Below, one piece after another: positions 10,358-45,517 of a stretch of 46,736 nt of DNA. The stretch comes from Escherichia phage BEK6, in sequence record MN158208.1. One strand, 5' to 3'. Positions within the stretch are counted from its first letter, which is position 1. The number at the start of each line of letters is the position of its first letter. The translations under genes were made by a program, and so were the position numbers. The notes under the pieces are model-generated. The model was not told where the DNA came from and made no database searches. It saw only the letters and a list, made by a program, of their open reading frames with translations.

Positions 10358-10375
10358 ATAGCACTTTTTGATAAA
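10358..10375 (+). promoter_or_regulatory. gene-boundary palindrome copy (ATAGCACTTTTTGATAAA) with -10-like TATAGT 22 bp downstream
   Basis: TTGATA ends 10373, TATAGT 10396-10401, CATCGAAACGAAA 10407-10419, ATG 10435. Confidence 0.5.
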
Positions 10376-10434
10376 GCACTTATTCAGTTTTGCTGTATAG
10401 TTAACTCATCGAAACGAAATGGGGGAATTAAGAG

Positions 10435-10683
10435 ATGAATAACGTTAAAAACATTATCAAACTTACTGCGGTTCTGGTTGCTTTTTATGCGGTAGTTCAG
10501 ATTGTTAACCCAACTGGCGAGGCTGATGCAAATAGCAAGGCAAACAAATATACTGTTGAATTTTCCAAGGCTTATCGAGCATGTCAGGAGCTTGTGGGTG
10601 GTAAGGTTGACCAAATAATGAAATATGGCAAAGAGGTTTGTAAGGACTCAGCCGCTAAGATTGCAAAAGAAAACACTAAGTAA
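10435..10683 (+). CDS. small secreted/membrane protein (moron)
   Basis: 82-aa ORF with hydrophobic N-terminus (IIKLTAVLVAFYAVVQIV); preceded by its own palindrome / -10-like / CATCGAAACGAAA leader module. Confidence 0.5.
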   Translation: MNNVKNIIKLTAVLVAFYAVVQIVNPTGEADANSKANKYTVEFSKAYRACQELVGGKVDQIMKYGKEVCKDSAAKIAKENTK

Positions 10684-10721
10684 TAGAATACATACTCATA
10701 AACAATAAGGGGATCAACAAA

Positions 10722-11036
10722 ATGGCTAAATTCAAACTTTCACTGTCGGCACTTCCTGACTTTAAGCTGCCGGTAAAATTCAAGCTGGCTAACGACCAGG
10801 ATGTAGAGGTTATCTTTACAGTAAAGCATAAGAAAACATCTGAGCTTCAGGAATTGCTTAATAAAGAAGGACTGAGCACCAAAGAACTCATCATGGCAAT
10901 TGCTTCTGATTGGGATTTGGAGGAAGAATACAACGAGGATAACGTTAATGAGTTCTCCGACCTGTTCCCGGCCTCAACCGTTGCACTTACTACCGCTTAT
11001 ATGCAGGCACTGGCAGGCCAGCGGGTAAAAAACTAA
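10722..11036 (+). CDS. tail assembly chaperone (gpG-like)
   Basis: 104-aa acidic ORF directly upstream of the tape measure gene, ending at a slippery A_AAA_AAC. Confidence 0.6.
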   Translation: MAKFKLSLSALPDFKLPVKFKLANDQDVEVIFTVKHKKTSELQELLNKEGLSTKELIMAIASDWDLEEEYNEDNVNEFSDLFPASTVALTTAYMQALAGQRVKN

Positions 11037-11356
11037 AGAGGGCGGTGTATCTACAGTACCAGTCAGAGCCAACTGATGCCGAACTGGAAGCTATTGGGAT
11101 GCGCCGCTCTGATTACGAAGACGAAGAGCCTGAAGTTTTACACTTCGACGACAACATGATGAAGGCTTGGGACATTTATTGTTCAATGGCCACGCAATGG
11201 AGGGTTGGAGCTAACGGACCTACAGGGTTAGATTACAACGTGCTAAATTTCCTCTTTAGAGTGTATAATGTCTCAGAAGAAGAATTGGTGCTCAGTGATT
11301 TACGCATCCTTGAAGCTAAGGCTCTCGAGATGATGGATAATCTGAGAAAAAAATAA
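10722..11356 (+). CDS. tail assembly chaperone, predicted -1 frameshift product (gpGT-like)
   Basis: Heptamer A_AAA_AAC at 11027-11033 in the zero frame, 1 nt before the G stop; the -1 frame is open through 11356. Confidence 0.45.
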
Positions 11357-11376
11357 CCCGCTTCGGCGGGTTTTCT
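11356..11376 (+). terminator. hairpin + T-run before the tape measure gene
   Basis: ACCCGC-ttcg-GCGGGT followed by TTTTCT. Confidence 0.5.
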
Positions 11377-11391
11377 ATTATGGAGGCTTAG

Positions 11392-14370: not shown

Positions 14371-14400
14371 TTAACGGGGCTTCGGCCCCTAAGGATTTTT

Positions 14401-14751
14401 ATGGCTATTGACACATTTACCTGGTGCACTCAGATACAAAATGGAGGTGCTGCATTTTCCAACACAAACAACGTGCGAATTGTTAGCTTCGGTAATGGTT
14501 ACGAACAGCGCGGAACGGGAGGATACCGCAGCAACAAGCGCAGTTATCAGATGACTTACACTAACGAGGACTGGCGCGATGTGATGGACTTTTGCTTCAA
14601 CCACATCATTACTCCATTTTTCTGGACTACGCCGCAGGGCGATACATCCATGTTTGTTATTCAGCAGGATAGCATTAGCGTAACACCGCTAAGCAAGCAG
14701 ATTCAGACTGTAAGCATGCAATTCGTAGAAGTATTTAGTTCAATGCGTTAA
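14401..14751 (+). CDS. minor tail protein (lambda gpM-like)
   Basis: 116-aa ORF immediately after the tape measure gene; size/position as lambda M. Confidence 0.55.
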   Translation: MAIDTFTWCTQIQNGGAAFSNTNNVRIVSFGNGYEQRGTGGYRSNKRSYQMTYTNEDWRDVMDFCFNHIITPFFWTTPQGDTSMFVIQQDSISVTPLSKQIQTVSMQFVEVFSSMR

Positions 14752-14755
14752 ACTA

Positions 14756-14776
14756 AGCCCCATTAGGGGCTTTTTT
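14756..14776 (+). terminator. hairpin + T-run between M-like and L-like genes
   Basis: AGCCCC-atta-GGGGCT followed by TTTTTT, then TTGGAGAAAATC-ATG. Confidence 0.55.
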
Positions 14777-14789
14777 ATTGGAGAAAATC

Positions 14790-15545
14790 ATGTTAAGTCC
14801 AAAGTTTGAAAATCAGCTGCAAAGCCTTTTCCCTGGCGAGATTGTGACACTAATCCAGGTTGACGGAACCTCCTTCGGAAGTCTCGTTTACAACTTCCAC
14901 AATGAGAACATTTCATACACGCCAGAAGAGATTATGCTGTCCCAGATGAATGGGGAGCCACTACCAGAGAAGACTATTACATTTCGCGGTGAAGAGTATG
15001 GTCCTAGACCTTTCGGTATCTCGGGCATCAATATGACTTCTGACGGCAAGGCAAACAAAGTAACGCTAACAGTATCAAACGTGGACCAGCGTATCAGTGC
15101 CTTGATTCGCACTTACAATGGATTAGTCAAGGCTAAGGTTACTATCTGGATTACCACACGTGATAACATCAATGAAGATGGAAGTATTGCTGATGGTGAC
15201 TATCGCCGATTTGTTTACTTCATTGAGCGACCTAAGCAGGTTGATTACAAAACTGCGTCATTTGAGCTTAGTAGCCCGATGGATATGGATGGCATTTATA
15301 TCCCGGCGAGACTTGTTCAGTCTGTTTGCTATTGGGCTTCACGTGGCTGGTATCGTAGCGGGAATGGTTGCGACTACGCTGGTAATCGTTACTTTGACAA
15401 GGATGATAACCCAGTATCAGACCCTTCATTAGACTTCTGCGCCGGAACGGTTAATAGCTGTAAAATTAGATTTGGTGAGAATAATCAGCTTTCATTTGGT
15501 GGATGCGCGGCAGCAAGCCTTCAAGCTAAAGCAAATCAGAGCTAA
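14790..15545 (+). CDS. minor tail protein (lambda gpL-like)
   Basis: Cys-containing C-terminal region (CYWASRGWY...GNGCDYAGN...DFCAGTVNSC) like the gpL Fe-S motif; GGAGAAAATC-ATG start after a terminator. Confidence 0.7.
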   Translation: MLSPKFENQLQSLFPGEIVTLIQVDGTSFGSLVYNFHNENISYTPEEIMLSQMNGEPLPEKTITFRGEEYGPRPFGISGINMTSDGKANKVTLTVSNVDQRISALIRTYNGLVKAKVTIWITTRDNINEDGSIADGDYRRFVYFIERPKQVDYKTASFELSSPMDMDGIYIPARLVQSVCYWASRGWYRSGNGCDYAGNRYFDKDDNPVSDPSLDFCAGTVNSCKIRFGENNQLSFGGCAAASLQAKANQS

Positions 15546-15563
15546 ATAGCACGAATTGCTAAA
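15544..15563 (+). promoter_or_regulatory. gene-boundary palindrome copy AAATAGCACGAATTGCTAAA
   Basis: Overlaps stop of the L-like gene; TATAGT at 15584-15589 exactly 22 bp after TTGCTA. Confidence 0.5.
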
Positions 15564-15618
15564 CGATGAAGCCATGGATGGCGTATAGTTACTTCACACA
15601 AACGAGAGGGGTTAAAAA

Positions 15619-15981: not shown

Positions 15982-16004
15982 TAAACGAGATTAGTGTTAA
16001 ACTG

Positions 16005-16030: not shown

Positions 16031-16042
16031 ATTGGAGATAAA

Positions 16043-17354: not shown

Positions 17355-17362
17355 ATATCATA

Positions 17363-17395: not shown

Positions 17396-20300
17396 ATGGC
17401 ACAAATGATCAAAACAAACATGAGGCTTTGTGATATGGCTGAAGATATTAAGATTTATGGTGCTAAAGGCGGTAGCCAGAAGCCGCACCAACCAGTGGAA
17501 CAAGAAGACAACCTGATTTCATTAAACAAGGTTAAGGTGTTACTTGCGGTTGCTGACGGCGAGGTGGATTCAAACTTCTCAATGAAGGATTTATACCTTG
17601 CTGACGTTCCTGTGCAGAACCAGGATGGTAGCTACAACTACGAAGGTGTTCGCGCTGAGTTCCGTGCTGGCACGCAGTATCAGGACTATATCGCTGGGCT
17701 TGATGGTGCCAACTCAGAGATTCAGGCATCCAGAGAGATCACGAACGATACACCGTATATCATCGCGGTTAACAATACTCAGCTATCGGCGATTCGTGTA
17801 AAGCTATACTGGCCTAGACTGGTTAAGCAAGAAAGCAATGGAGATCTGAACGGAACAACCTGCGAGTATGCAATTGACCTTTCTGTTAATGGTGGCGCTT
17901 ACCAGGAATATACTCGAGGAGTTGCTAACGGGAAGACAACTACAGGTTACGACCGCAGCATTCGTGTAAACCTTCCGGCTGAATTTGATAGCGCATTGGT
18001 TCGCATCAGAAAGATTACGCCAGATTCAACAAGTAGCACATTGGTTAACGGGATGCAGATTACAACCTATCAGGAAGTGATTGACGCTAAATTCCGCTAT
18101 CCGCTTACGGCTCTGGTTTATGTTGAGTTTGGATCTGACCTTTTCCCTAACGGAATACCGACAATCTCTATCAAGAAGCGCTGGAAGCTGATTCAGGTCC
18201 CAACCAACTACGACCCGGAAACAAGAACTTACAGCGGAACATGGAATGGACTGTTCAAAATGGCATGGTCAAATAACCCAGCCTGGGTTCTTTATGACTT
18301 AGTGACAAACCGTCGCTATGGCCTTGATCAACGAGAGTTGGGCGTGGAGATTGATAAGTGGGGATTGTATGAAGCCGCGCAATTCTGTGACCAGATGGTG
18401 CCAGATGGAAAAGGTGGAATGGAGCCGCGCTACCTGTGCGATATGGTTGTACAGAATAAGGTTGAGGCCTACACGCTAATTCGTGATATCTGCTCAATCT
18501 TCCGTGGCCTGACTTTCTATGACGGCGAAAAGATTGGTATTGTGGTTGATAAGCCACGCAACCCATCATACATCTTCACGAATGATAACGTTGTAAACGG
18601 ATTATTCAGCCGAACTTTTGCCAGTGATAAGAGCCTTTACACTACGGCAAACGTTCAGTTTGATGATGTGGAGAACAACTATCAGCAGGATGTTGAGCCA
18701 GTTTTCGAGCTCGAGGCTACTCGTCGATTCGGATTCAACCCAGTCGACCTTACGGCGATTGGGTGTACTCGCAGAAGTGAAGCAAACAGACGTGGCAGAT
18801 GGCTCCTGAAAACCAACCTGAGAAGCGAAACTATCAGCTTCACTACCGGGTTGGAAGGCATGATTCCGATGATTGGAGAGGTTATTGCGGTTAATGACGC
18901 GGCATGGTCCAGCAACTATCAGTTAAACCTTTCCGGTCGTATTGAATCAGTTCAGGGATTGCAGGTTTTTACCCCGTTTAAAGTTGACGCAGCGCCAGGT
19001 GACAGAATTCTTCTGAACAAACCCGACGGAAGTCCAGAAGCAAGAACTATTGCCAGCGTTTCGGAAGATGGTAGAACAATCAACCTGAATACTGCTTTTA
19101 GCTTTGTAGCTCAACCTGATACTGTGTTCGCAATTGATAAGGACAATCTTGCTCTTCAGCAATATGTTGTGACCGGGATTCAAAAAGCAGATTCTGATGG
19201 ATCGGATTCATTCCAGTATACGATTACAGCAGTGGAGTACGACCCGAACAAGTATGACGAGATTGATTACGGCGTTAACATTGTTGACCGCCCAACTTCA
19301 ATCGTAGAGCCTGACAGATTATCGCCACCAGAAAACCTGACGGTATCAAGCTACAGTAAGGTTGTTCAGGGTTTATCAGTTGAGACGATGGTTATCGGAT
19401 GGGATAAGGCTCCATACGCTAAAACATACAATGTTCAGTGGAGGAAAGAAAATGGCAACTGGATTAACGTACCAAGAACGGCAAGTACAGAGGTTGATAT
19501 CGAAGGTATTTACGCAGGAATCTATGACGTTAGGGTTCGCAGCGTATCAGATACTGAAAACGTGTCTGCCTGGTCTGATATTGTAACGGTATCGCTAACT
19601 GGCAAGATTGGCCGCCCATCGGCGCCTACGGTTATCACGGCGTCAGCTGATGAGGTATTTGGCATCCGTGTTAAATGGGGATTCCCTGATGGCTCTGGTG
19701 ATACTGCTTACACTGAGCTTCAGCAGGTTCCTGATAATGGCGATGGTACTTACAATCCTGATAACGCAAGTTTGCTGACTTTACTGCCTTATCCAGCCTA
19801 TGAATACTGGCACACGCCAATTCAGCCAGGAAAGGTTATCTGGTATCGCGCAAGATTGATTGACAGAATCGGTAACACATCTGATTGGTCTAATTTCGCA
19901 AGAGGCATGAGTACTGACGACGCCAACATTATCAATGATTACATCAAGGTTGATATTGAGGCTTCGGAAGGATTCAAATACCTCGAGCAGAATGCGATTC
20001 AAAAGAATCAGGACATTCAGAATCAGGCAGAGTCAATTCTTGAGAATGCATTAGCTAATGATGCAGACGTTCGCCGCATGACCAAGGAGAACGGCAAGCG
20101 TAAGGCTGAATATGTTCAGGCAGTTAATCTCATAGCCGATGAAACTCAGGCTCGTGTAGAGGCTCTAACAGCCCTTAAAGCGCAGATAGATGATGAAGTT
20201 GTAGCATCGATTACAGAAGTTCAGACAGCGCTAGCCACCGAGACAGAAGCAAGGACTACTGCAGACACTGCTCTATCAGCAAGATTGGGTGATAACGAGG

Positions 20301-22000: not shown

Positions 22001-22066
22001 TTTTAAATCCTTAGTAAGTATGTTTCGTTTCGATGAAGTAATAGTATCGCATCCCTGCGATCAGTG

Positions 22067-22086
22067 TTTAGCAATTAGTGCTATTT
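22067..22086 (-). promoter_or_regulatory. gene-boundary palindrome copy (AAATAGCACTAATTGCTAAA on minus strand)
   Basis: Overlaps stop of the Rha-like gene; minus-strand TACTAT 22 bp downstream and CATCGAAACGAAAC leader before the lipoprotein gene. Confidence 0.5.
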
Positions 22087-22734
22087 CTTTTCCAGCAACA
22101 TCTTAATGTCAATGCCTAGCTCATTCTCAATTAATCCAGTCAGTGCATCGGCTTTTTCTTTAAGGGCAAAACACTGCGCTTCATACTTAAATCTTTCCTC
22201 CATCTCATTCGAGCGACTAGCCCAACACTGGCGAGCCTCACAAGCCAGCATATCGAGTTTTTCATCGGTATTCTTATCCATGAGTAAGATCTCATTTATT
22301 CTTTGCTCTGCAACAATGCGCTGGCTCAGGTGTGCATTTTGCGCATTAGCCACACCAAGCATCATTCGCGCCTCTTTTAACTCATCAATGCTTACCATCT
22401 GGCTGATCACTTCTGCTTGTTTTTTAACTAATGCCTCAAGCTCATGAAGTCGACGGATAACCCTGTGACGAAGAGCGACACTGTAGCCAGTGATTAGCGT
22501 TTCGGTGAGTTCCTTGTTGAGTAAAACCTCAGATGTATAGCCGCGACTGTCCGTAAGTACTTGATAATCATCATGACCCAAATCTGGGGCATCGTTATAA
22601 TGTAACAATTCATTGATCATTTCCTTTGTGTCGCGAACTACGTGATCATGACGCTTACCTGTCAATTCAGCAATTTCCTTCGTGCTCATCATGGTTTTTT
22701 GCTGTTCTTTGTACACTTTAATGTTCATTTTCAT
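22081..22734 (-). CDS. Rha-family regulatory (antirepressor-like) protein
   Basis: N-terminal motif STKEIAELTGKRHDHVVRD matches the Rha signature; first gene of the minus operon leaving the 22.7-23.3 kb control region. Confidence 0.5.
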   Translation of the reverse strand: MKMNIKVYKEQQKTMMSTKEIAELTGKRHDHVVRDTKEMINELLHYNDAPDLGHDDYQVLTDSRGYTSEVLLNKELTETLITGYSVALRHRVIRRLHELEALVKKQAEVISQMVSIDELKEARMMLGVANAQNAHLSQRIVAEQRINEILLMDKNTDEKLDMLACEARQCWASRSNEMEERFKYEAQCFALKEKADALTGLIENELGIDIKMLLEKK

Positions 22735-22825
22735 CTCTCTTTGTTTTTGCGCTACCGATTTTCGGTATCACAAGCAGCACCATTGCCGCCATGCGCCTAA
22801 ATATACCTAAAGATATCCAGTTGTC

Positions 22826-22845
22826 TTTAGCAAATAGTGCTATTT
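22826..22845 (-). promoter_or_regulatory. palindrome copy (AAATAGCACTATTTGCTAAA on minus strand) upstream of the Rha-like gene
   Basis: Minus-strand TATATT (forward 22800-22805) 22 bp downstream; about 70-nt leader to ATG 22734. Confidence 0.45.
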
Positions 22846-23255: not shown

Positions 23256-23284
23256 TTGACATCAATGCGGATTAGTTGTACTAT
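23256..23284 (+). promoter_or_regulatory. candidate sigma70-type promoter for the HNH gene / plus-strand early operon
   Basis: TTGACA (23256-23261), 17-bp spacer, TACTAT (23279-23284). Confidence 0.5.
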
Positions 23285-23314
23285 CAATTAAACAAAACAG
23301 CGGAGGGCTTATTT

Positions 23315-23806
23315 ATGGAATGGGGAGACATCTTTGAATACAGCAACGGAAAGCTTTACTGGAAGATAAGACCAGCAATGAGGATGAGGGTTGGCGACCT
23401 TGCGGGGACGGAATGTAAGGGTTACATTCAAGTTAACTGCAAAGCCAAATCGGGGGTAAATAAACTATATAGGGCGCATAGGATTGTATGGGAAATGCAT
23501 CATGGACCAATACCAGAAGGGGTAGTTATCGACCACATTAATGGGAATGGTCTAGACAACAGGATTGAGAACCTAAGAGTGGTTACGCAAGCAGATAATC
23601 AGAAGAACAAGAAGGTTGGTAAAAACAATGAAAGTGGTGTTCTTGGTGTTGCTTGGTATAAGCCTAGTTCGAAGTGGGTCGCTAGAATATCTAAGGATGG
23701 GAAGTGGTCACATATTGGGTATTTCGATAATTTCGAGGATGCCGTAAGAGCTAGGCGAGAAGCTGAATTAGAATTCAAATATCACGAAAATCACGGGAGA
23801 CGTTAA
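23315..23806 (+). CDS. HNH homing endonuclease with AP2-like DNA-binding domain
   Basis: HNH motif (YRAHRIVWEMHHGPIPEGVVIDHINGNGLDNRIENLR) followed by GVLGVAWYKPSSKWVARI...GYFDNFEDAVRARREAE; GGAGGG RBS, TTGACA-17-TACTAT promoter upstream. Confidence 0.7.
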   Translation: MEWGDIFEYSNGKLYWKIRPAMRMRVGDLAGTECKGYIQVNCKAKSGVNKLYRAHRIVWEMHHGPIPEGVVIDHINGNGLDNRIENLRVVTQADNQKNKKVGKNNESGVLGVAWYKPSSKWVARISKDGKWSHIGYFDNFEDAVRARREAELEFKYHENHGRR

Positions 23807-25196: not shown

Positions 25197-25214
25197 ATAG
25201 CACTAATTGCTAAA
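25195..25214 (+). promoter_or_regulatory. palindrome copy AAATAGCACTAATTGCTAAA in the ERF gene leader
   Basis: Overlaps exonuclease stop; followed directly by TACAAAAT, RBS and ATG 25236 (no -10-like hexamer). Confidence 0.45.
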
Positions 25215-25235
25215 TACAAAATTAAAAGGTGGTGT

Positions 25236-25919
25236 ATGATTACCCCATCAACGACGAACGAGGTTAATATGCAAATTTCAGAATCATGCAAATCAATTTT
25301 AAACGCGCTGCACACTGCCAAATCGCTATTTGCGAAGGCTGAAAAGTCTAAGCAGAACTCACACTTAAAGAACAAGTACGCTACCCTAGAAGACGTTTTG
25401 GCGGCCGTTGAGCCTGGTTTAGATGAGTGTGGGCTTGTTATGTTCCAGAGTGTACTTGATGATGAACAAACCAATCGCATGAAGGTTGAGACAAAACTGT
25501 TTCATGCTGAATCTGGAGAGTGGGTTAGCTTCTTGATGATCGTACCAATCAGTAAGAATGATGCACAAGGTTACGGCTCAGCTTTAACATACGCTCGACG
25601 TTACGGAATCACAGCGGCGTTAGGACTTAGCCAGGCAGATGATGATGGTAATCTCGCAGCGAAAGGTGTTAAGGACTTTAAGCGAGAGCTAGAGAAATGC
25701 AATACTCTTGATGAGCTTCGCAATGTCTGGAAGGAGGCTAAGCAGTCACTTGATGCGGCAGGATGGAAGGTTTTCGAACCCCACATCATAGAGCGAAAGG
25801 CAGAGATTGAAGCAAATGCAGCAACTGGCTTCAACCCAGCAGAACCAAAGAAAGTTGCAGAAAAAAGTAGTCCTGAAGAAAAGATTAAAGTAGAATCAAA
25901 ACAAATCGACACATTCTAA
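25236..25919 (+). CDS. ERF-family single-strand annealing protein
   Basis: Conserved ERF-like segments (KYATLEDV..., GSALTYARRYGITAALG); ATG 25269 is an alternative start. Confidence 0.65.
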   Translation: MITPSTTNEVNMQISESCKSILNALHTAKSLFAKAEKSKQNSHLKNKYATLEDVLAAVEPGLDECGLVMFQSVLDDEQTNRMKVETKLFHAESGEWVSFLMIVPISKNDAQGYGSALTYARRYGITAALGLSQADDDGNLAAKGVKDFKRELEKCNTLDELRNVWKEAKQSLDAAGWKVFEPHIIERKAEIEANAATGFNPAEPKKVAEKSSPEEKIKVESKQIDTF

Positions 25920-28924: not shown

Positions 28925-28944
28925 CCATTTTGTAGAATAGCACG
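28925..28944 (-). promoter_or_regulatory. palindrome copy in the 5' leader of the 835-aa fiber-like gene
   Basis: Minus-strand reading TTAGCAATTCGTGCTATTC then TACAAAAT-GGAGA RBS; candidate extended -10 TGaTACAAT just upstream on the minus strand. Confidence 0.45.
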
Positions 28945-28968
28945 AATTGCTAAGTTGGATTGTATCAT

Positions 28969-29982: not shown

Positions 29983-30456
29983 TTACTCTTTAGCTTTTCG
30001 TGCTGCTTCGTTAGCGGCCTTAATTTTGCGCCAGGAGCGACACTCCGGCTTGGTGGCTAACTCAGCCTCAGTAACCACACGCAGCATGTGGCGTTTTTTG
30101 CATCGTAGAGTTAGCGGCTTTCCGTTGCCATCGAATTGTAGATCTGGTCGGCAGAATGTAGCTCGAAAACCTTCTCCGGTTCGTTTGTAGTAGTTGTGCG
30201 ACAACTGAGCGCCACGCGCAGAAATCATACCACGCTTAAACCATTCTTCTACAGCCTGTGGTGTTACCTTTAACTGCTTTGCGATATTAGCCTTTGTGCC
30301 AAAGAAATCAAGGAGCATCTCAAGACGTGCTCGTAGCCCGGCCCTTACTTCATCTTTTAAAACGTAGTAACCTGAGGGTCGTTTTCGCTGTTTTTTGTCT
30401 TCAGTGCGGACTGTTCCGTTGTTGCCGTTAATGGTTCGCTTGTCTACTTCATTCAT
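29983..30456 (-). CDS. putative HTH DNA-binding protein
   Basis: 157-aa basic protein with helix-turn-helix-like segment GTKANIAKQLKVTPQAVEEWFKRG; first gene of the minus-strand primase operon. Confidence 0.4.
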   Translation of the reverse strand: MNEVDKRTINGNNGTVRTEDKKQRKRPSGYYVLKDEVRAGLRARLEMLLDFFGTKANIAKQLKVTPQAVEEWFKRGMISARGAQLSHNYYKRTGEGFRATFCRPDLQFDGNGKPLTLRCKKRHMLRVVTEAELATKPECRSWRKIKAANEAARKAKE

Positions 30457-30466: not shown

Positions 30467-30486
30467 AATAGCATTTATTGTTAAAA
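30467..30486 (+). promoter_or_regulatory. degenerate palindrome copy (AATAGCATTTATTGTTAAAA) in the primase/helicase divergent region
   Basis: TGgTATTAT extended -10-like element about 20 bp downstream, upstream of helicase ATG 30557. Confidence 0.4.
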
Positions 30487-30556
30487 GTCATCCTGATTTG
30501 ATGGTATTATTGTACTCAATTAAACGCTACAAGACAATTTTTATAGGAATTTAGAT

Positions 30557-32551: not shown

Positions 32552-32781
32552 ATGCACTAGGCTTTGCTATAAAAGAAATGATTGAGGAAAGGATAAGGAA
32601 AAGAAACCATGACATTCTAATGTCCGTCTCTGATAATGTTTTTGAACATATACTATACCACGGAGTAACGAGCGAGAATTCACATTGTGCAGGTATGGTG
32701 TACAACGGTATTTACTTTAGTGAGCATGAGATAATCTCAGCTTACTTTTCTAGAAATGAAGAAGCGGAGCCATTATTTTGA
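32548..32781 (+). CDS. hypothetical protein
   Basis: 77-aa ORF, ATGA overlap with the helicase stop, GGAG RBS. Confidence 0.4.
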   Translation: MNALGFAIKEMIEERIRKRNHDILMSVSDNVFEHILYHGVTSENSHCAGMVYNGIYFSEHEIISAYFSRNEEAEPLF

Positions 32782-33197
32782 ATATTACAGACAAAGGTGA
32801 TTACGTTGAGTTTTACCCAGGCCCAGTTAAGTCATGCCCTAAAGAGGACGACGAACAAATCTTTTGCTCTGACTGGGTTAAGTATAACTATCCAGAGATG
32901 GTATTTTTCCACTGCGTGAATGAGGGTAAGAAAACCATTGGCCAAGCAAGAAAGGATCAGTCTAAGGGGTTGCTTAAGGGTGTGTCAGACTGCATGTTTT
33001 TGATACCTGAATCGCTGCGAGGCAAATACCCTTTTGGCGCCATAGAGCTCAAGAGGGCAGGAAAAACTCAGGCTAGCCCAGTCAGTGTCGAACAGAAGTC
33101 TTTCCTTAAAAGCGTAAGAGAATCGGGCGGTTTCGCTGCTGTGGCATATGGGCGTGAGGGCTTTCTGGCAGCATTTGAAGAAATGATTTCAAAATAG
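32778..33197 (+). CDS. VRR-NUC domain nuclease
   Basis: VSDCMFLIP...GAIELKRAGK pattern (D...E.K) typical of VRR-NUC; TTG start with GGAG RBS; stop codon lies inside a palindrome copy. Confidence 0.6.
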   Translation: MNITDKGDYVEFYPGPVKSCPKEDDEQIFCSDWVKYNYPEMVFFHCVNEGKKTIGQARKDQSKGLLKGVSDCMFLIPESLRGKYPFGAIELKRAGKTQASPVSVEQKSFLKSVRESGGFAAVAYGREGFLAAFEEMISK

Positions 33198-33211
33198 CAC
33201 GAATTGCTAAA
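33192..33211 (+). promoter_or_regulatory. gene-boundary palindrome copy AAATAGCACGAATTGCTAAA
   Basis: Contains the TAG stop of the VRR-NUC gene; TATTAT at 33232-33237 (22-bp spacing); CATCGAAACGAAAC 33243-33256. Confidence 0.5.
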
Positions 33212-33275
33212 GACGAATCTGTGGGGTAGTGTATTATCACTTCATCGAAACGAAACATCAAAACAGGAATCGGAA

Positions 33276-33525: not shown

Positions 33526-33545
33526 AAATAGCACGAATTGCTAAA
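33526..33545 (+). promoter_or_regulatory. gene-boundary palindrome copy AAATAGCACGAATTGCTAAA
   Basis: TATAGT at 33566-33571 (22-bp spacing) inside hairpin GGAGTAtagtTACTCC; leader CATCGAAACTAAAC. Confidence 0.5.
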
Positions 33546-33607
33546 GATGATTTTAAAAGATGGAGTATAGTTACTCCATCGAAACTAAACTCAGAGAGAG
33601 AAACAAA

Positions 33608-35861: not shown

Positions 35862-35879
35862 ATAGCACTTTTTGCCTAA
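35860..35879 (+). promoter_or_regulatory. degenerate palindrome copy (AAATAGCACTTTTTGCCTAA)
   Basis: Overlaps stop of the phosphoesterase gene; hairpin TGCCGtagaaatGCGGCA and CATAAT at 35900-35905. Confidence 0.4.
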
Positions 35880-35935
35880 CCTATGCCGTAGAAATGCGGC
35901 ATAATTGCCATATCAAAACAAACGAGGATTCAATC

Positions 35936-37501: not shown

Positions 37502-37558
37502 TTTAAAATCCTCTTTGTTTTCGATGAAGTAACTATACTATTTTTGTTTTTTCTTTTA

Positions 37559-37579
37559 TTTAACAATTCGTGCTATTAG
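37559..37579 (-). promoter_or_regulatory. palindrome copy (TAATAGCACGAATTGTTAAA on minus strand)
   Basis: Overlaps stop of micro-ORF 37576-37653; minus-strand TATAGT about 22-23 bp downstream, CATCGAAAAC leader before ATG 37501. Confidence 0.45.
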
Positions 37580-37653: not shown

Positions 37654-37716
37654 TTTATTTTCCTTTCATGTCTATCGTTTCGATGGATTAAATATAACAA
37701 TTAACCCACAAGATGT

Positions 37717-37736
37717 TTTAACAAAAAGTGCTATTT
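37717..37736 (-). promoter_or_regulatory. palindrome copy (AAATAGCACTTTTTGTTAAA on minus strand)
   Basis: Overlaps stop of gene 37735-38037; TATATT and CCATCGAAACGATAGAC leader before the micro-ORF. Confidence 0.45.
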
Positions 37737-38037: not shown

Positions 38038-38099
38038 CTTATTTTCCTTTGTTAATCTCGTTTCGATGAATTAATAATAACAAAAGCCCATAATGGGCT

Positions 38100-38119
38100 T
38101 TTAACAAAAAGTGCTATTT
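38100..38119 (-). promoter_or_regulatory. palindrome copy (AAATAGCACTTTTTGTTAAA on minus strand)
   Basis: Overlaps stop of gene 38118-38453; followed by terminator hairpin AGCCCATTATGGGCT and CATCGAAACGAG leader. Confidence 0.45.
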
Positions 38120-38453: not shown

Positions 38454-38456
38454 TTA

Positions 38457-40040: not shown

Positions 40041-40097
40041 TACTTCTCTCCGTATTGTTTCTGAGCGGCCATTATATCAACGACCGCTTATAATTCA

Positions 40098-40117
40098 TTA
40101 TCAATTTGTGCTATTAG
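40098..40117 (-). promoter_or_regulatory. palindrome copy (CTAATAGCACAAATTGATAA on minus strand) upstream of the 527-aa gene
   Basis: Minus-strand TATAAT (forward 40071-40076) exactly 22 bp after TTGATA; overlaps the 3' end of micro-ORF 40114-40230. Confidence 0.45.
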
Positions 40118-40816: not shown

Positions 40817-40878
40817 TTCTTTTGCCCTTCGTTGTTTCGTTTCGATGAGGTTAATATACATGAAAAGCCCCGAAGGAC

Positions 40879-40898
40879 TTTAGCAATTAGTGCTATTT
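40879..40898 (-). promoter_or_regulatory. gene-boundary palindrome copy (AAATAGCACTAATTGCTAAA on minus strand)
   Basis: Encodes the C-terminus/stop of ORF 40880-41041; minus-strand TATATT (forward 40853-40858) 22 bp downstream; CTCATCGAAACGAAAC leader. Confidence 0.5.
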
Positions 40899-41280: not shown

Positions 41281-41290
41281 ATCTCAATCC

Positions 41291-41470
41291 TCAAATAAAT
41301 GGTAGGCATTCGGCGCATCCAAGTCCATCACAGCACAGGAATTCATCCTCTGACTGGAATTGCTTAGCCAAGTCGATGTCCAGCTTTCCGCGCAACACAA
41401 GTTCTGTGTAATCTTCATTAAGCCCAATCAGTGCGCATTCGTGACGTAATTCATCTTTATCAATCTTCAT
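41291..41470 (-). CDS. hypothetical Cys-rich small protein
   Basis: 59-aa ORF (ends ...CCDGLGCAECLPFI) with GGGGAG RBS, preceded by palindrome/TATAGT/CTCATCAACAACGG module; below the track cutoff. Confidence 0.35.
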   Translation of the reverse strand: MKIDKDELRHECALIGLNEDYTELVLRGKLDIDLAKQFQSEDEFLCCDGLGCAECLPFI

Positions 41471-41524
41471 ACCAATCTCCCCGTTGTTGATGAGCTAACT
41501 ATAGCCTGGCCATCCACACATGTC

Positions 41525-41544
41525 TTTAGCAAAAAGTGCTATTC
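41525..41544 (-). promoter_or_regulatory. palindrome copy (AATAGCACTTTTTGCTAAA on minus strand)
   Basis: Minus-strand TATAGT (forward 41498-41503) about 23 bp downstream; first gene of the minus operon starts at 41470. Confidence 0.45.
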
Positions 41545-41827
41545 GTCAGATTTATGGATTGTTGCAGATATTGCAATGATTCACATGACTATTGCACATA
41601 CAGCAATATTGCTTCAGATGCAATGATGTTTTTGATTGTTGCGAAAAGTGAAATGAAGTGGGGAGTGAGTGAATGAAAGATTGATGGACTGCCATACAAG
41701 TTGACTTTACCACTCGATGAGCACCTCACGGATATACGCGTATCCTAAGTATACTCAGTGTCGTCACAAAAGTTAGTGACCACTAACCTACGTTTTTACG
41801 CGAGATATACACACGATATACAATATA

Positions 41828-41896
41828 ATATCTATATATATCAACCTTTTACTTTATTATTATTATTATTATTATATATATGTATACTGTGTATAC
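41828..41896. repeat. AT-rich repeat element with (TTA)n tract, copy B
   Basis: ATATCTATATATATCAACCTTTTACTTTATTATTATTATTATTATTATATATATGTATACTGTGTATACC; same orientation as copy A. Confidence 0.7.
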
Positions 41897-42102
41897 CGAT
41901 CATTGGTGAGATAGTTGATATGTTCCGCGCAGATATTCTGACACTTGTAGGAAAGGGATGACATTGTAGGAATGGATAGGCATGCATGGGGCCTGGTGGG
42001 TAAAAAAAGTGTATACACGGCGTACGCGCAATATACATATAGAGATGATGCGGTGCTAGAGGCAGATTTGCGTATTAGGTGAAAAATATACAAAGAAATA
42101 CT

Positions 42103-42131
42103 TTGACTAACGCGTAAATCTGATGCAATAT
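42103..42131 (+). promoter_or_regulatory. candidate sigma70-type promoter for the 42172 gene cluster
   Basis: TTGACT (42103-42108), 17-bp spacer, CAATAT (42126-42131). Confidence 0.35.
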
Positions 42132-42171
42132 ACCAATCAATGAAACGCAGTACACAACAACGAGGTGACAT

Positions 42172-42714
42172 ATGAATGAAGTAACGCTTGGTGAAGTAAT
42201 CAGGAATATGGTAAGTAAAGCCATGGAGTCCAGCAGTGGTGAGTTTAAGGTTCCTGTAAGGGAAATATTCAAGGTGCTTAGAGGTCGGGATTATCCTGAG
42301 CTCAGGTATGATGTTGAAACTGATGAGATCATCAACCTTAAGGAGCGGTCGATTCCAGAATTGAAGAACTCATACATTTATAATACGGTATCAAGGATGC
42401 CGCAGTTAAGAGCTGCAGGAAAGCATGCTAAGCACAAGATAATCTGGATTGATGATGATGGTGAGCAGACGAGCGCAAAGCAATTCGACGGTGACGGTGC
42501 AGATAAGTATCTTGTAATCCAGATCTGCGATGGTGAACATAAGAAGAGCGAGAGCGCCAGGAGGAAGAGAGATAGCGATGCTGCTGTTATTGAGTCATTC
42601 AAGTCAAGATTAATGAAGGTAGTACCGAGCGTTATGGACTTAGATGGTGAGCAGAAGGTTGGCGCAGAGATTGCTATCGGTAGATTTTATGATTTGATTA
42701 AGGATGCTAAATAA
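42172..42714 (+). CDS. hypothetical protein
   Basis: 180-aa ORF, first plus-strand gene after the 41.5-42.2 kb control region; candidate TTGACT-17-CAATAT promoter upstream. Confidence 0.45.
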   Translation: MNEVTLGEVIRNMVSKAMESSSGEFKVPVREIFKVLRGRDYPELRYDVETDEIINLKERSIPELKNSYIYNTVSRMPQLRAAGKHAKHKIIWIDDDGEQTSAKQFDGDGADKYLVIQICDGEHKKSESARRKRDSDAAVIESFKSRLMKVVPSVMDLDGEQKVGAEIAIGRFYDLIKDAK

Positions 42715-43241
42715 TGTTTGATTTCAACGAAGACAAATTGACTGATGAACAGATTATGAGCATTGCGAAGCAGGATGGAATTCCACCGCTACGGATTGCA
42801 ATCAATGCAAATGGTTATAGGCATGTTCAGCACCTCTGGGGCCAGCCTGACGCATCGGAAGTCTACAGAGATGAAGCGCTGGGAGTTATGATTAAGTTGA
42901 TCAGGAAAATGGCAAGGAACGGCAAGGGCGTGCTTGGCATCAGGTCTTTATACGATGGCGCTCGCAGGGGGAAAAGAATTAATGGTGGCAATGCCGTGCT
43001 GATGGCTCGCATTAAGGATGAGCTCATCCCCGCTCTAGAGGAAATGAATCTCGTTTGCCTAATTGGAGATAAGATTTATGTTCATCCGGCTATCATTGAT
43101 GAGTATTGGCAACCAAACTTCAAAACTTACGAAGGTGAGCACGCTAGTAGACCACCATACCACTTGCGGTACAGCGAGGAAGAGGTGGAGGTGGCGATTG
43201 AGTTCTACCGGAAAGCTAAATCACTCCTGAATGGTGAATAG
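42714..43241 (+). CDS. truncated paralog of the 527-aa NTPase-like protein (N- and C-terminal segments only)
   Basis: Starts MFDFNEDKLTDEQIMSIA...PPLRIAINANGYR and contains NGKGVLGIRSLYDGAR...IKDELIPALEEMNLVCLIGDKIYVHP, matching both ends of the minus-strand 527-aa protein; first 20 nt identical. Confidence 0.5.
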   Translation: MFDFNEDKLTDEQIMSIAKQDGIPPLRIAINANGYRHVQHLWGQPDASEVYRDEALGVMIKLIRKMARNGKGVLGIRSLYDGARRGKRINGGNAVLMARIKDELIPALEEMNLVCLIGDKIYVHPAIIDEYWQPNFKTYEGEHASRPPYHLRYSEEEVEVAIEFYRKAKSLLNGE

Positions 43242-43255
43242 CACGAATTGTTAAA
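43236..43255 (+). promoter_or_regulatory. gene-boundary palindrome copy (GAATAGCACGAATTGTTAAA)
   Basis: Contains the TAG stop of the 175-aa paralog; TATAAT at 43276-43281 (22-bp spacing). Confidence 0.5.
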
Positions 43256-43311
43256 AGGGGATTCATCCTGACTGGTATAATCCCCACATCAACCAAACGA
43301 AAGGAATTTGA

Positions 43312-43443
43312 TTGACCATATACGAACATAAATTCAGTAGCAGGGGCATTGATATGCTCCTGCACTATGTAGACGAAAAATACGCAAATCACATGCTTAA
43401 GACGCATGGCGGAACAATGACGAGGGTTAACATAAATGTCTAA
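43312..43443 (+). CDS. hypothetical small protein (TTG start)
   Basis: 43-aa ORF after palindrome/TATAAT module with AAAGGAA RBS; 3' end overlaps the kinase start; speculative. Confidence 0.25.
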   Translation: MTIYEHKFSSRGIDMLLHYVDEKYANHMLKTHGGTMTRVNINV

Positions 43444-44053
43444 AGTCATCATTCTCAACGGTCCGGCTGGTGTAGGCAAAGACACGATCGGCAACGCTCT
43501 TGCGAAAGATTACAACTGCATCCCGACGAGCTTTAAGCGCCCTATGTTTGAGATCGCAGCTTCAATCCTTGGCCCTCGGGCGTTCAGCAAATTCATCACC
43601 GCTTATCACGACCGCGATCAGAAAGAGATTCCTTATGGATTCCTTGGTGGCAAGACCTGCCGCGAGTTCATGATTTGGATTGGCGAGTCGGTGGTCAAGC
43701 CGCTATTTGGCAACCAGCAATTCGCAAAGCTGATGAGCGAACATATCCGGATTTGTGACGAAGGCTCATGTTTTGTTTGCACTGATGGCGGTTTCCCTGA
43801 TGAGGTTATTCAGCTAGTGGAAGATGGTCACGACGTTACCGTTGTGCGCCTGTTTATGGATGGCAAAACCTTCGCAGGCGATAGTCGTAATTACATCCGC
43901 ATCAAGGAATCTCACTTCCCTGATTATAAAAAGTATCAGGAGCACAGCATTCACCTGGTTAATGGCGACATTGAAGGTGGTGTTTTGGCGGTGGTTCTTG
44001 CCTGCGGCCTGCAACCTCAGATTGACGAATGGGCGGACGATATTCCCTGGTAA
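43436..44053 (+). CDS. P-loop nucleotide/nucleoside kinase-like protein
   Basis: N-terminal Walker A IILNGPAGVGKDT; ~200 aa, typical small-kinase size. Confidence 0.6.
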   Translation: MSKVIILNGPAGVGKDTIGNALAKDYNCIPTSFKRPMFEIAASILGPRAFSKFITAYHDRDQKEIPYGFLGGKTCREFMIWIGESVVKPLFGNQQFAKLMSEHIRICDEGSCFVCTDGGFPDEVIQLVEDGHDVTVVRLFMDGKTFAGDSRNYIRIKESHFPDYKKYQEHSIHLVNGDIEGGVLAVVLACGLQPQIDEWADDIPW

Positions 44054-44071
44054 ATAGCACGAATTGCTAAA
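44052..44071 (+). promoter_or_regulatory. gene-boundary palindrome copy AAATAGCACGAATTGCTAAA
   Basis: Abuts the kinase stop; hairpin CCCGCtcctGCGGG plus T-run, then TATAGT at 44092-44097 (22-bp spacing). Confidence 0.5.
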
Positions 44072-44126
44072 CCCGCTCCTGCGGGTTTTGTTATAGTTAG
44101 TTCACACCAAGAGATAGGTAGTAAAA

Positions 44127-44219
44127 ATGAAGCAATATCCATCAAGCAATCACCATAACGGTCACGTCATGCAGTTCTATCGCCACAACCTGAAGACTAA
44201 GGGAGTATTTGGAAAATGA
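44127..44219 (+). CDS. hypothetical micro-protein
   Basis: 30-aa His-rich ORF ([30 protein letters not shown]) between the palindrome module and the next gene, ATGA overlap downstream; speculative. Confidence 0.25.
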
Positions 44220-44434
44220 TTACAATTAACCTGTCAGAGAAAGACGCAGCAATGCTTAAGTCCATGCTGTCAATCTTTGAGAAGCCAAATGAACGAGCAA
44301 TTTCAAAAGAGGTGATTGCTCAGTTCAACAATCAGCAGTTCGACGTAAGTGACTTCGAGTCATCACGTCAGTACGAGGCGCTTAGCGTCAATGCGGCATA
44401 CCTGACTAACTGGGATAAGGCGACAAAGAAATGA
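44216..44434 (+). CDS. hypothetical protein
   Basis: 72-aa ORF, translationally coupled to neighbours. Confidence 0.4.
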
Positions 44435-44616
44435 TTTACGTTCACACGTACTACACAGGCAAGTTTAATAGCGTTAAGCATGTTCGGGTTTATGATACCT
44501 TCCTTAAGGCCAGTAAGCAGATGGATGTTTTAGGTGGCACAATCAAGGCTTGTGAAGTAATTAAAGAATACAAATTAGGGTATTACTATGAAGCGCGGAT
44601 GGGTGTTGGTGGTTAA
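44431..44616 (+). CDS. hypothetical protein
   Basis: 61-aa ORF with ATGA overlap. Confidence 0.4.
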   Translation: MIYVHTYYTGKFNSVKHVRVYDTFLKASKQMDVLGGTIKACEVIKEYKLGYYYEARMGVGG

Positions 44617-44716
44617 CGGAAAAGTTATAGGTTATTTCGAAACAGAGGATGCAGCATGGTTGTATTGCGCAACCCACTGCGTTGGTGAGTTTAAATGCGA
44701 GTCAATAGAAGTAACT

Positions 44717-44735
44717 AATAGCACTAATTGCTAAA
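44717..44735 (+). promoter_or_regulatory. gene-boundary palindrome copy (AATAGCACTAATTGCTAAA)
   Basis: TATAGT at 44756-44761 (22-bp spacing) within GGGGTA...TACCCC hairpin; CATCGAAACGAAC leader. Confidence 0.5.
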
Positions 44736-44791
44736 ACAGTATTGGGGTAATTTGATATAGTTACCCCATCGAAACGAACGAGGAAGCGGAA

Positions 44792-44971
44792 ATGAAATTT
44801 CAACAGGGCGAGCCCAAGCTACAAGCTAACCACTTCGATGGCTACACAACATTCATCATCGCCCAGGCGTGCGGTATGCGAGATGAGCCTCAGGTTCACA
44901 CCATTCACTTGACCGAGGAGCAAGCTCGAGAGATGGCGTATGAAATTATTGAGCAATTGAATAAGATTTAA
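44792..44971 (+). CDS. hypothetical protein
   Basis: 59-aa ORF downstream of palindrome (44717-44735) / TATAGT (44756-44761) / CCCCATCGAAACGAACGAGG leader; below track cutoff. Confidence 0.35.
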   Translation: MKFQQGEPKLQANHFDGYTTFIIAQACGMRDEPQVHTIHLTEEQAREMAYEIIEQLNKI

Positions 44972-45020
44972 CGCGCCTAAAACGCATTCTAGCAAACTAT
45001 AATTTAAGTAAGGTGATTCT

Positions 45021-45182
45021 ATGATTAAGGTTGTCTATGTAGGTGAGAGTGATTATGTGGCGCTAATTCAGCGTGGTGATGTGTTTTTCGCAGAGATGAG
45101 TGATGATGGTAGTTGCTACATCGTAAAGAACAAGAATGGCGAAGATATCTACCTTTCAGAAGATGATGTTATAATTTACTAA
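45021..45182 (+). CDS. hypothetical small protein
   Basis: 53-aa ORF with AAGGTGA RBS; first of three overlapping small ORFs. Confidence 0.3.
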   Translation: MIKVVYVGESDYVALIQRGDVFFAEMSDDGSCYIVKNKNGEDIYLSEDDVIIY

Positions 45183-45307
45183 TGGATAACTACGAATCAC
45201 CAAGCCAGTGGTGTAAGAGAATGCAGGATGAAGCTATAAAGGTCGAAGAGGCGATAGCTTATTACGAGCTGGCTAAAATGTGGATGGAACGGGAGAAGAA
45301 AGAATGA
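45182..45307 (+). CDS. hypothetical small protein
   Basis: 41-aa ORF, TAATG overlap upstream and ATGA overlap downstream. Confidence 0.3.
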   Translation: MDNYESPSQWCKRMQDEAIKVEEAIAYYELAKMWMEREKKE

Positions 45308-45447
45308 GCTTCACTGAATATGTGATCGCATGTGAACGACTCGTCTTCGATATGAAGACTTTCCACTGGTTCATCATTAAGGATTTAATTAAGCCTTACA
45401 AGCGTGGTGTAACACCTGAGGCTTTTGTTAATTCATTCTATAAATAG
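45304..45447 (+). CDS. hypothetical small protein
   Basis: 47-aa ORF whose TAG stop lies inside the palindrome copy at 45442-45461. Confidence 0.3.
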   Translation: MSFTEYVIACERLVFDMKTFHWFIIKDLIKPYKRGVTPEAFVNSFYK

Positions 45448-45461
45448 CACGAATTGCTAAA
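45442..45461 (+). promoter_or_regulatory. gene-boundary palindrome copy AAATAGCACGAATTGCTAAA
   Basis: Contains the TAG stop of ORF 45304-45447; hairpin GCCATgtATGGC; TACAAT at 45482-45487 (22-bp spacing). Confidence 0.5.
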
Positions 45462-45517
45462 CGCAGCCGCCATGTATGGCATACAATCACCACATCAACA
45501 CAACGAGAGATTGAGAA

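Follow-up and report, generated by a model that had tools for sequence, protein, structure and literature searches.

The 46,736-nucleotide stretch of Escherichia phage BEK6 (sequence record MN158208.1) that was analysed here, hereafter the window, derives from a T1-family siphophage (Drexlerviridae, subfamily Braunvirinae, near Veterinaerplatzvirus) and shares 87-90% identity over long stretches with BEK, FP and vB_EcoS phages. Its gene boundaries carry a repeated module composed of an imperfectly palindromic motif, a gap of near-constant length, a -10-like hexamer and a leader. Relaxed searches and direct reading recovered 19 complete modules and one motif-only copy (28937), in agreement with an earlier reading of this DNA (the original prediction) that had listed about 20 copies; all 20 were present within a few nucleotides, the copy given as 28925 lying at 28937-28956. 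Orientation toward the downstream gene was observed for 19 of the 20 copies, at 71-88 nt ahead of the start codon and, for one of these, at 114 nt. The genes behind the modules are mostly small with no assigned function, the others being a helicase, the ERF recombinase, a T1 gp09-like protein, a Rha/Ant-like protein and a Cor-like lipoprotein, as well as two cassettes in the late region. As had also been claimed, the motif supplies stop codons to upstream open reading frames (ORFs), which abut or overlap it at at least 11 copies. Taken together, sequence and position make it probable that these modules are class II marbox promoters, numbering approximately 20 per genome across the T1-like family and served most likely by host activators of the MarA/SoxS/Rob type.

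The motif probe TAGCACKAATTGCTA, scored at up to two mismatches against 100 shuffles of the window, returned 15 matches against 0.20 expected, and no shuffle (0/100) equalled the observed count. This enrichment, together with the presence of modules in Rtp, T1 and TLS, bears out the expectation that the motif would exceed its frequency in shuffled sequence and recur in related T1-like phages. Between TTGnTA and the TAnnnT hexamer lie 22 nt in 15 modules, 21 nt in two, including the TTGCCTA copy with its 1-nt insertion, and 23 nt in two, which is the fixed 22-nt spacing, plus or minus one, that had been described; measured from the end of the marbox, the gap is 18 bp in 15 modules, 17 bp in two and 19 bp in two. 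The spacing was equally constrained in a family-wide set of 372 unique modules from 75 sources, where strong -10-like hexamers were found at 22 nt (180), 21 nt (40), 23 nt (21) and 25 nt (14), and only two occurred at other distances between 12 and 35 nt. The conserved leader was likewise recovered, CATCGAAACGAAAC at up to two mismatches giving nine matches in the window against 0.37 expected, eight of the nine inside modules; the remaining module leaders are A/C-rich variants.

Further promoter features emerged from the family set, with G at -14 in 66% of modules and C-A at -1/+1, the A being the seventh nucleotide past the last base of the hexamer in 73%. The latter agrees with the transcript start originally placed about 7 nt past the hexamer at (C)ATCGAAAC, all +1 positions given here being predicted from sequence, not mapped. 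The -14 G, the C-A at the predicted -1/+1 and the fixed hexamer distance are promoter signatures. Canonical -35/-10 pairs showed no enrichment in the window (41 vs 37.8 in shuffles), and the -35 position of the modules reads AAA(A/C)nn, with hexamers that fit TAnnnT. The earlier view is upheld that TTGCTA is not a -35 box but part of a regulator site whose distance to a plausible -10 is constant.

The marbox consensus of E. coli MarA, SoxS and Rob is AYnGCACnnWnnRYYAAAY (PMC3709825), and the phage motif AAATAGCACnnnTTGYTAAAA agrees with it at every specified position except, partly, the last Y (A 47%, C 25%). When the published consensus was used as a probe at up to one mismatch, with 100 shuffles each for the window, T1 and Rtp, 19 matches were found in the window against 1.15 expected (17 of them modules, seven perfect), 21 in T1 against 0.96 and 16 in Rtp against 0.77; the observed number was reached by none of the 100 shuffles in each case. 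Columns that had been left free in our own search also obey the consensus across the 372 modules, position 10 being A or T in 98% (W) and position 14 being C or T in 95% (Y), and the marbox flanks A1, A17 and A18 are conserved too. The palindrome of the original prediction is present but imperfect and uneven, with C (55%) or T (40%) at position 13 opposite an invariant G3. Two-fold symmetric conservation fails, given the weaker right arm, asymmetric flanks and strict directionality, and the dimeric regulator site that had been suggested gives way to a directional motif fitting an asymmetric marbox, of the kind read by monomers with two helix-turn-helix motifs.

A class II activator site was first suggested by the right arm of the motif ending at -35. 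Class II marboxes are forward, overlap the -35 and cluster near -41 (PMC12052159; PMC10268841), at promoters with a canonical -10 and without a recognisable -35 (PMC10268841). The phage module, ordered as ATAGCACnnnTTGYTAAAAn, 18 bp, TATAGT, 6 nt and A, places its marbox at approximately -50 to -31 relative to the predicted start (centre approximately -40.5), where it replaces the -35. Forward orientation, with GCAC distal and YAAA proximal on the sense strand, holds in 19 of 20 copies and is the same sense as at micF in E. coli K-12, which reads in the genome ACAGCACTGAATGTCAAAAC, 18 bp, TAGAAT, 7 nt, +1. At micF, a class II MarA/SoxS/Rob(/RamA) promoter with solved activation complexes, the RamA site lies at approximately -41 with top strand 5'-CACT-7X-AAA, and RamA contacts sigma region 4 and the alpha C-terminal domain (PMC8811837); the micF soxbox is centred at -41.5, and SoxS is described as a co-sigma-like factor that pre-recruits RNA polymerase (PMC9638938). 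The phage modules share with micF a 20-bp forward marbox in the register CACN-7X-AAA, an 18-bp gap, a centre near -41, the lack of a -35 hexamer and a canonical -10. They differ from it in their approximately 20 copies per genome, far more uniform sites, conserved leader and hairpins, as well as in a T rather than C at marbox position 15 (as in the mar marbox) and a discriminator of 6 rather than 7 nt. The marRAB marbox, reverse-complemented as ATGCCACGTTTTGCTAAAT, is identical to the phage T-group site ATAGCACTTTTTGCTAAAA at 15 of 19 positions, but is a class I site, backward and upstream of a good -35 (TTGACT), whereas the phage site is forward and in place of the -35.

By analogy with micF, a host activator monomer would bind the GCAC and YAAA elements through its two helix-turn-helix motifs. 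The most likely readers are host Rob, MarA and SoxS, with RamA in Klebsiella and Salmonella, such that in E. coli the part could be taken by constitutively present Rob or by stress-induced MarA or SoxS. Contact with the alpha C-terminal domain and sigma70 region 4 would then recruit, or 'pre-recruit', host RNA polymerase to an otherwise unusable promoter. The predicted transcription start, the A of cATCGAAAC after the 6-nt gap that follows the hexamer, would give a 23-27-nt unstructured A/C-rich leader that precedes a Shine-Dalgarno site and start codon. Each small gene cassette would thereby obtain its own host-activator-dependent promoter, with the marbox taking up upstream stop codons and the 18-bp gap accommodating terminator-like hairpins.

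The hosts of these phages are enterobacteria that possess MarA, SoxS and Rob, some with RamA (PMC12052159; PMC8811837; PMC10268841). A phage-encoded MarA-like protein was sought and rejected: phmmer, run over every six-frame ORF of eight phage sequences (the complete window, Rtp and T1 among them), detected no MarA relative (best E 0.64), and Pfam no AraC-type helix-turn-helix in 10 unassigned window proteins. From the identity, orientation and spacing of the motif, the missing -35, its invariance across the family and the lack of a detectable AraC-type protein in the phages, all of which can be read directly from the sequences, it is inferred that host MarA-family proteins, as the most economical readers, bind the modules and are needed for their activity. 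A broader reading, which we offer tentatively, is that a whole virulent family (Drexlerviridae) relies on the host MarA, SoxS, Rob and RamA proteins, as 'co-sigma-like' stress activators, to recognise most of the promoters that can be identified in it.

Modules number approximately 16 in Rtp and approximately 21 in T1, and occur in nearly all of the fetched IMG/VR loci of T1-like phages. The motif had been called phage-specific, which does not fit a sequence that is that of a host regulon site; yet among the matches listed in the viral-contig scan, multi-copy loci were found only in T1-like contigs, the other matches being singletons. A candidate module outside T1-like phages (locus L136) was rejected as a chance match in an AT-rich contig. 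The repeat itself has already been published for TLS, whose 2024 reannotation (PMC11447400) describes a 21-nt direct repeat, aaATAGCACnnnTTGnTAAAA, in 21 copies oriented with transcription approximately 76 nt before start codons, with similar repeats in T1, Rtp and Rogue1. The TLS repeats are the same element as the window motif, with the same orientation to transcription and distance to start codons. That paper reports three sigma70-like promoters only, offers stoperators, enhancer sites or UP elements as guesses for the repeats and leaves their function open; in the sections consulted it contains no fixed-distance -10, leader, binding protein, marbox match or class II geometry. No link between marboxes and phage promoters was found in the open-access texts searched, although earlier notice elsewhere is possible.

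Several points weigh against host activators as the readers. The consensus from which binding is predicted is itself degenerate. Sequence varies far less among the phage sites than among host marboxes, even positions left as 'n' in the consensus (A of ATA, TT of TTG) being nearly invariant, and this uniformity could point to another reader, acting alone or as a second one, or to copies that evolve in concert. Unstressed cells contain little MarA or SoxS, both of them unstable, and Rob depends on inducers for most of its activity. The loci to which classical T1-resistant mutants map are fhuA and tonB rather than rob, mar or sox, so no single host activator can be strictly essential and redundancy or basal activity would be needed. 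Hairpins around the -10, the conserved leader and the backward 28937 copy are left unexplained by the marbox model. Activation by RamA or MarA is modest, approximately 2-4-fold (PMC8811837). T1-like phages nevertheless multiply rapidly in ordinary broth. Modest activation, scarce activators, the resistance loci and site uniformity make for a serious rival, albeit one that we regard as rather unlikely, in which the site is read by a phage protein in the same class II position. Its mechanism would resemble that of lambda cI at PRM or Mu Mor/C at -35-less promoters, and the candidate would be an unrecognised phage protein or the Cro-like regulator encoded at 29983-30456 on the minus strand (98.6% identical to that of phage JeanPiccard; equivalents Rtp52, T1 gp23 and TLS gp57). 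The regulator was examined in 72 related loci, by alignment, by AlphaFold2 modelling, by searches of known folds and of the PDB and by comparison with the N15 Cro operator, and its distant homologues were sought in a library representing approximately 15 billion proteins, after which their contigs were fetched. It is present in all 824 related phage records, and its central domain is an all-alpha Cro-type helix-turn-helix (predicted local distance difference test, pLDDT, 83) that Foldseek matched to Xfaso-1 and N15 Cro (probability approximately 1, TM 0.7). The N15 Cro operator TTATAGCTAGCTATAA and the motif have ATAGC in common, a motif copy lies 1-3 nt before the regulator ribosome-binding site in 58 of 58 sequence variants, and a phage reader would also suit a motif more uniform than host marboxes. 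Canonical sigma70 promoters are very few, and the regulator gene has one, TTGTCT-17-TACAAT, as would fit an immediate-early activator; TLS promoter P57 belongs to the same gene (PMC11447400). What decides against the regulator as leading reader is its distant homologues: in T1-like phages where it is approximately 35% identical the DNA motif is exactly the same, while the recognition helix is hypervariable (TPQAVEEW, SHQTIQQW, SIQVVQQW, SNQTVQGW, SHATLYEW, KRHRVARW, THGCIEQC). With the 19-bp site invariant and no base-contacting residue conserved, the reader must itself be invariant, which favours a host protein. Co-variation of site and regulator was unusable as evidence, since the site is constant even at that identity, and the palindromic operator of a dimeric Cro/cI-type regulator was rejected on the missing two-fold symmetric conservation and on a recognition helix not conserved with the site. 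The site is asymmetric and directional, unlike a dimer operator, the motif copy beside the regulator gene is the module of the helicase gene, and a phage regulator gives no account of why the marbox match is exact even at the W and Y columns.

Promoters served by sigma70 only, with the motif as a UP-like or extended element for RNA polymerase and no activator, are improbable. Good -10 hexamers, the -14 G in its 66% of modules, A-tracts beside the motif and the good growth of T1-like phages without stress inducers would suit them, as would the invariance of the motif across hosts, expected were RNA polymerase the reader. Unlike that of UP elements, however, the invariant core (GCAC, TTG) contains G/C and is not A/T-rich, and the motif lies at -50 to -31, taking the place of the -35, rather than at -60 to -40; TTGYTA would have to lie 5 bp further downstream to suit sigma region 4, shows no drift to TTGACA and has a nearly invariant T at its fifth position. 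Both the UP-element idea and that of stoperators appear in the TLS paper (PMC11447400). Stoperator-like, orientation-dependent roadblocks as in mycobacteriophage L5, at which a repressor silences or insulates transcription units, are very unlikely here: the sites do lie between genes and are oriented with transcription, the only property shared with L5 stoperators, and the 28937 copy and the regulator-leader copy are inside transcribed leaders, but the fixed 18-bp distance to the -10 and the CA start mark a promoter element, no L5-type repressor has been identified in these virulent phages and the marbox identity is left without explanation. About equally doubtful is an element acting mainly at the RNA level or in recombination, serving read-through transcripts as a hairpin or processing site, or cassette exchange as a conserved linker. 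Strong hairpins accompany the modules (mean z -2.6), 75-nt modules are near-identical and the phage encodes RecE/ERF recombination genes; homology breakpoints against 15 relatives fall in modules in 25 of 115 cases against 4.2 expected from coverage, an enrichment that is confounded by the modules being intergenic. This excess agrees with the earlier description of the modules as gene-cassette boundaries and is compatible with cassette exchange at repeats, but recombination would be a by-product of repeats, and marbox sequence and fixed spacing would stay unexplained. The RNA hairpin or processing site of the original prediction fares no better, the palindrome forming only a weak stem (-1.3 to -3.7 kcal/mol) with one-sided right-arm changes, no Rfam family matching at the modules and the element sitting upstream of its own predicted start site. 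Least probable of all is binding of host Lrp to the palindrome. The arms TAGCA and TGCTA fit the Lrp consensus YAGHAWATTWTDCTR confirmed in PMC5554404, at 11-13 of 15 positions overall and 13 of 15 in T-group sites, yet the two consensuses, Lrp and marbox, differ at one column, where Lrp wants A or T and 337 of 372 modules carry C, the marbox base. The Lrp site was set aside as a partial match, with the conserved flanks A1, A17 and A18 outside the 15-mer, strict orientation and class II spacing all unaccounted for.

A sigma54 (-24/-12) promoter was also considered and rejected. The sigma54 consensus, TGGCAC-N5-TTGCW, has GG and GC exactly 10 bp apart, whereas in the motif TAGCAC-N3-TTGCT AG stands where GG is required and the spacing falls 2 bp short, and the conserved -10 and CA start 22 nt further on would have no role. 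The arrangement proposed for the phage modules has counterparts in the middle and late promoters of Mu (Mor/C) and the middle promoters of T4 (MotA/AsiA), which have a -10 but no -35, with an activator site over the -35 region; the shared logic is that of many phage promoters built in this way. At Mu the Mor/C site has its dyad at approximately -43.5 and at T4 the MotA box lies at -30, in both cases with phage-encoded activators, whereas the T1-like modules carry a host regulon site and no phage AraC-type protein was detectable in the sequences searched. The promoter-early-stem-loop (PeSL) cassettes of T4-type phages, reportedly plain sigma70 early promoters according to Arbiol et al. in 2010, resemble the modules as repeated units of promoter and hairpin at the boundaries of small accessory genes with mosaic breakpoints enriched. 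They differ in being plain sigma70 early promoters, and a recombination role in the T1-like phages is only weakly indicated.

T1-like phages are classic and ubiquitous and are used in therapy, for example the Klebsiella Webervirus group, and the class II marbox reading provides a concrete and cheaply testable model for approximately 20 promoters per genome. If it is true, a virulent phage would show an unexpected dependence on a host stress and resistance regulon, tying its expression to the antibiotic, oxidative and bile stress state of the cell and its productivity to the multidrug-resistance regulators MarA, SoxS, Rob and RamA. Multidrug-resistant strains with raised mar or ram would then boost the phage and cells deficient in rob, mar and sox would dampen it, with a bearing on combinations of phage and antibiotic and on the prediction of permissive clinical strains. 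The approximately 75-bp units, comprising terminator, promoter, leader and ribosome-binding site, are also of possible engineering use.

Within the modules, the 18-bp gap and -10 region are strongly self-complementary (mean z -2.6, 46% below -3 among 290 unique segments). The original prediction had treated the self-complementary spacers as part of the function of the palindrome; they are instead separate hairpins, some of them terminator-like. Class A hairpins are G+C-rich and abut the T-rich -10 (window examples 38116, 40895 and 44055, two of which were also flagged by a terminator scan), and they look like terminators of the upstream gene lodged inside the next promoter, with the T-rich -10 serving as U tract. 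Class B hairpins hold the -10 hexamer in their loop, with arms at approximately -21 to -13 and -6 to +3; examples in the window are 25198, 33529, 40113, 43239 and 44719, and many occur in T1. In the window these class B hairpins lie at 25220-25250, 33550-33585, 40060-40090, 43258-43290 and 44735-44770 and are statistically strong; their stems vary in sequence between copies and no U tract follows.

Along the window, the first module (10358-10434, plus strand) lies within the late region, where the marbox ATAGCACTTTTTGATAAAGC (10358-10377) is abutted by an upstream terminator and followed by -10 TATAGT (10396-10401), a predicted +1 at 10408 and the leader ATCGAAACGAAAT, ahead of an 82-residue gene starting at 10435. 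At 15546-15618 (plus), the perfect marbox ATAGCACGAATTGCTAAACG precedes -10 TATAGT (15584-15589), a predicted +1 at 15596 and the gene of a 120-residue virion-protein-like product (start 15619). Two minus-strand modules follow. The first (22001-22084) has a perfect marbox (22084-22065), -10 TACTAT (22046-22041), a predicted +1 at 22034 and the leader ATCGAAACGAAAC ahead of a 76-residue lipoprotein-like gene (start 22000), and the second (22729-22843) has its marbox at 22843-22824, -10 TATATT at 22805-22800 and a longer, atypical leader, serving the Rha/Ant-like regulatory protein gene at 22081-22728 (minus, start 22728). The module of the ERF recombinase gene (25197-25268, plus) combines a perfect marbox with -10 TATGAT (25235-25240), a predicted +1 at 25247 and a hairpin around the -10; the ATG within TATGAT is a spurious start, the true start being 25269. 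In both the ERF and fibre leaders the motif had been said to sit right before the ribosome-binding site. Only the fibre copy at 28937, inverted with respect to the fibre gene, immediately precedes a start codon, and the ERF copy (25198) is an ordinary module. The fibre copy, the marbox-only ATAGCACGAATTGCTAAGT (28937-28956, plus), is without a usable -10 at 18 bp and sits in backward orientation in the 25-nt leader of the fibre gene (minus strand, start 28912), just after TACAAT and a bidirectional terminator, an arrangement kept in Rtp (33762) and T1 (34902).

Ahead of the helicase gene (start 30557), the module at 30468-30556 (plus) has a weaker marbox, ATAGCATTTATTGTTAAAAG, with two mismatches, and -10 TATTAT (30505-30510). 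This hexamer and the regulator -10 TACAAT on the minus strand overlap (30468-30540), as is kept in 58 of 58 variants, and with divergent -10s overlapping the two promoters should exclude each other. The module at 33194-33275 (plus; -10 TATTAT 33232-33237, predicted +1 at 33244, leader ATCGAAACGAAAC) precedes a 60-residue gene (start 33276), and the TAG of its marbox is the stop codon of the ORF at 32778-33197. Its neighbour at 33528-33607 (plus; -10 TATAGT 33566-33571, predicted +1 at 33578) has a 9-bp hairpin, GATGGAGTA/TACTCCATC, around the -10 and a small gene next (start approximately 33608). A variant at 35862-35935 (plus) contains the marbox with the 1-nt insertion (TTGCCTA), followed by -10 CATAAT (35900-35905), a predicted +1 at 35912 and a 57-residue gene (start 35936).

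Six further modules are on the minus strand. That at 37502-37576 has a perfect marbox (37576-37557), -10 TATAGT (37537-37532) at a 19-bp gap and a predicted +1 at 37525, ahead of a 60-residue gene (start 37501), and that at 37654-37734 has its marbox at 37734-37715, -10 TATATT at 37696-37691 and a predicted +1 at 37684, ahead of a mini-ORF of approximately 25 residues (start approximately 37653). At 38038-38117, the marbox (38117-38098) is separated from -10 TATTAT (38079-38074; predicted +1 at 38067) by a gap containing the terminator-like hairpin AAAGCCCAttaTGGGCTTTT, and a 100-residue gene is next (start 38037). The weakest marbox, ATAGCACAAATTGATAATGA, with three mismatches, is accompanied by a consensus -10 TATAAT (40076-40071) with a hairpin around it in the module at 40041-40114, which precedes the 527-residue homologue of T1 gp09 (start 40040), labelled 'DNA helicase' in PHROG and putative ATPase in the T1 record. 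A gap hairpin and T run characterise the module at 40817-40896 (marbox 40896-40877, -10 TATATT 40858-40853, predicted +1 at 40846), ahead of a 117-residue gene (start 40816). The module at 41471-41542 (marbox 41542-41523, -10 TATAGT 41503-41498 at a 19-bp gap, predicted +1 at 41491) is the first promoter of the leftward small-gene block, with a 59-residue gene next (start 41470).

The remaining modules are on the plus strand. At 43238-43311 (-10 TATAAT 43276-43281, predicted +1 at 43288), a GGGGATT/AATCCCC hairpin extends across the gap and -10, and the same copy is kept in Rtp (1368) and T1 (2831). The module at 44054-44126 has a perfect marbox, the terminator-like gap hairpin AAACCCGCtcctGCGGGTTT, -10 TATAGT (44092-44097) and a predicted +1 at 44104. 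At 44718-44791, the marbox ATAGCACTAATTGCTAAAAC is followed by -10 TATAGT (44756-44761), which lies in the loop of a GGGGTAA/TTACCCC hairpin, a predicted +1 at 44768 and a 59-residue gene (start 44792); as had been noted, this marbox encodes the NSTNC-stop end of the ORF at 44588-44734. The last module (45444-45517) has a perfect marbox, -10 TACAAT (45482-45487) and a predicted +1 at 45494, ahead of a 62-residue gene (start 45518).

C-termini of the NSTNC/STNS type, encoded by the marbox (AAT AGC ACT AAT TGC TAA), were seen in the regulators of loci L009, L039, L064 and L068 as well as in the ORF at 44588-44734. A marbox match with one mismatch, at 17396-17414, is located where the J-like tail gene has its start codon and lacks a -10 at 18 bp. 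The homologous Rtp gene has an identical 19-mer at its own start codon (23313), so that the match is conserved as coding sequence and probably has no promoter role. In T1, modules at 15068-15086 and 18832-18850 (both minus) are antisense in the late operon with terminator hairpins close behind, and may produce short antisense RNAs. The N-terminal tail of the Cro-like regulator, DKRxxNGNNGTxRxxDKKxRKR, is disordered but invariant even in the homologues of approximately 35% identity. This tail or another early product might act on RNA polymerase or Rob/MarA, and might in that way shut -35-dependent host promoters while marbox promoters, with sigma region 4 displaced, keep firing. Approximately 600 bp of non-coding sequence at 41560-42170, with short ATTGCA-type repeats and (TTA)7 at 41854-41875, may be a terminal, pac or origin region, and a promoter-like TTGACT occurs at 42104, ahead of the first rightward small gene. 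The window also encodes a tRNA-Arg (anticodon tct) at 46224-46301, with a weaker tRNA-like Rfam match at 46309-46407 that was not called by ARAGORN, and an HNH endonuclease with an AP2-like domain at 23276-23806.

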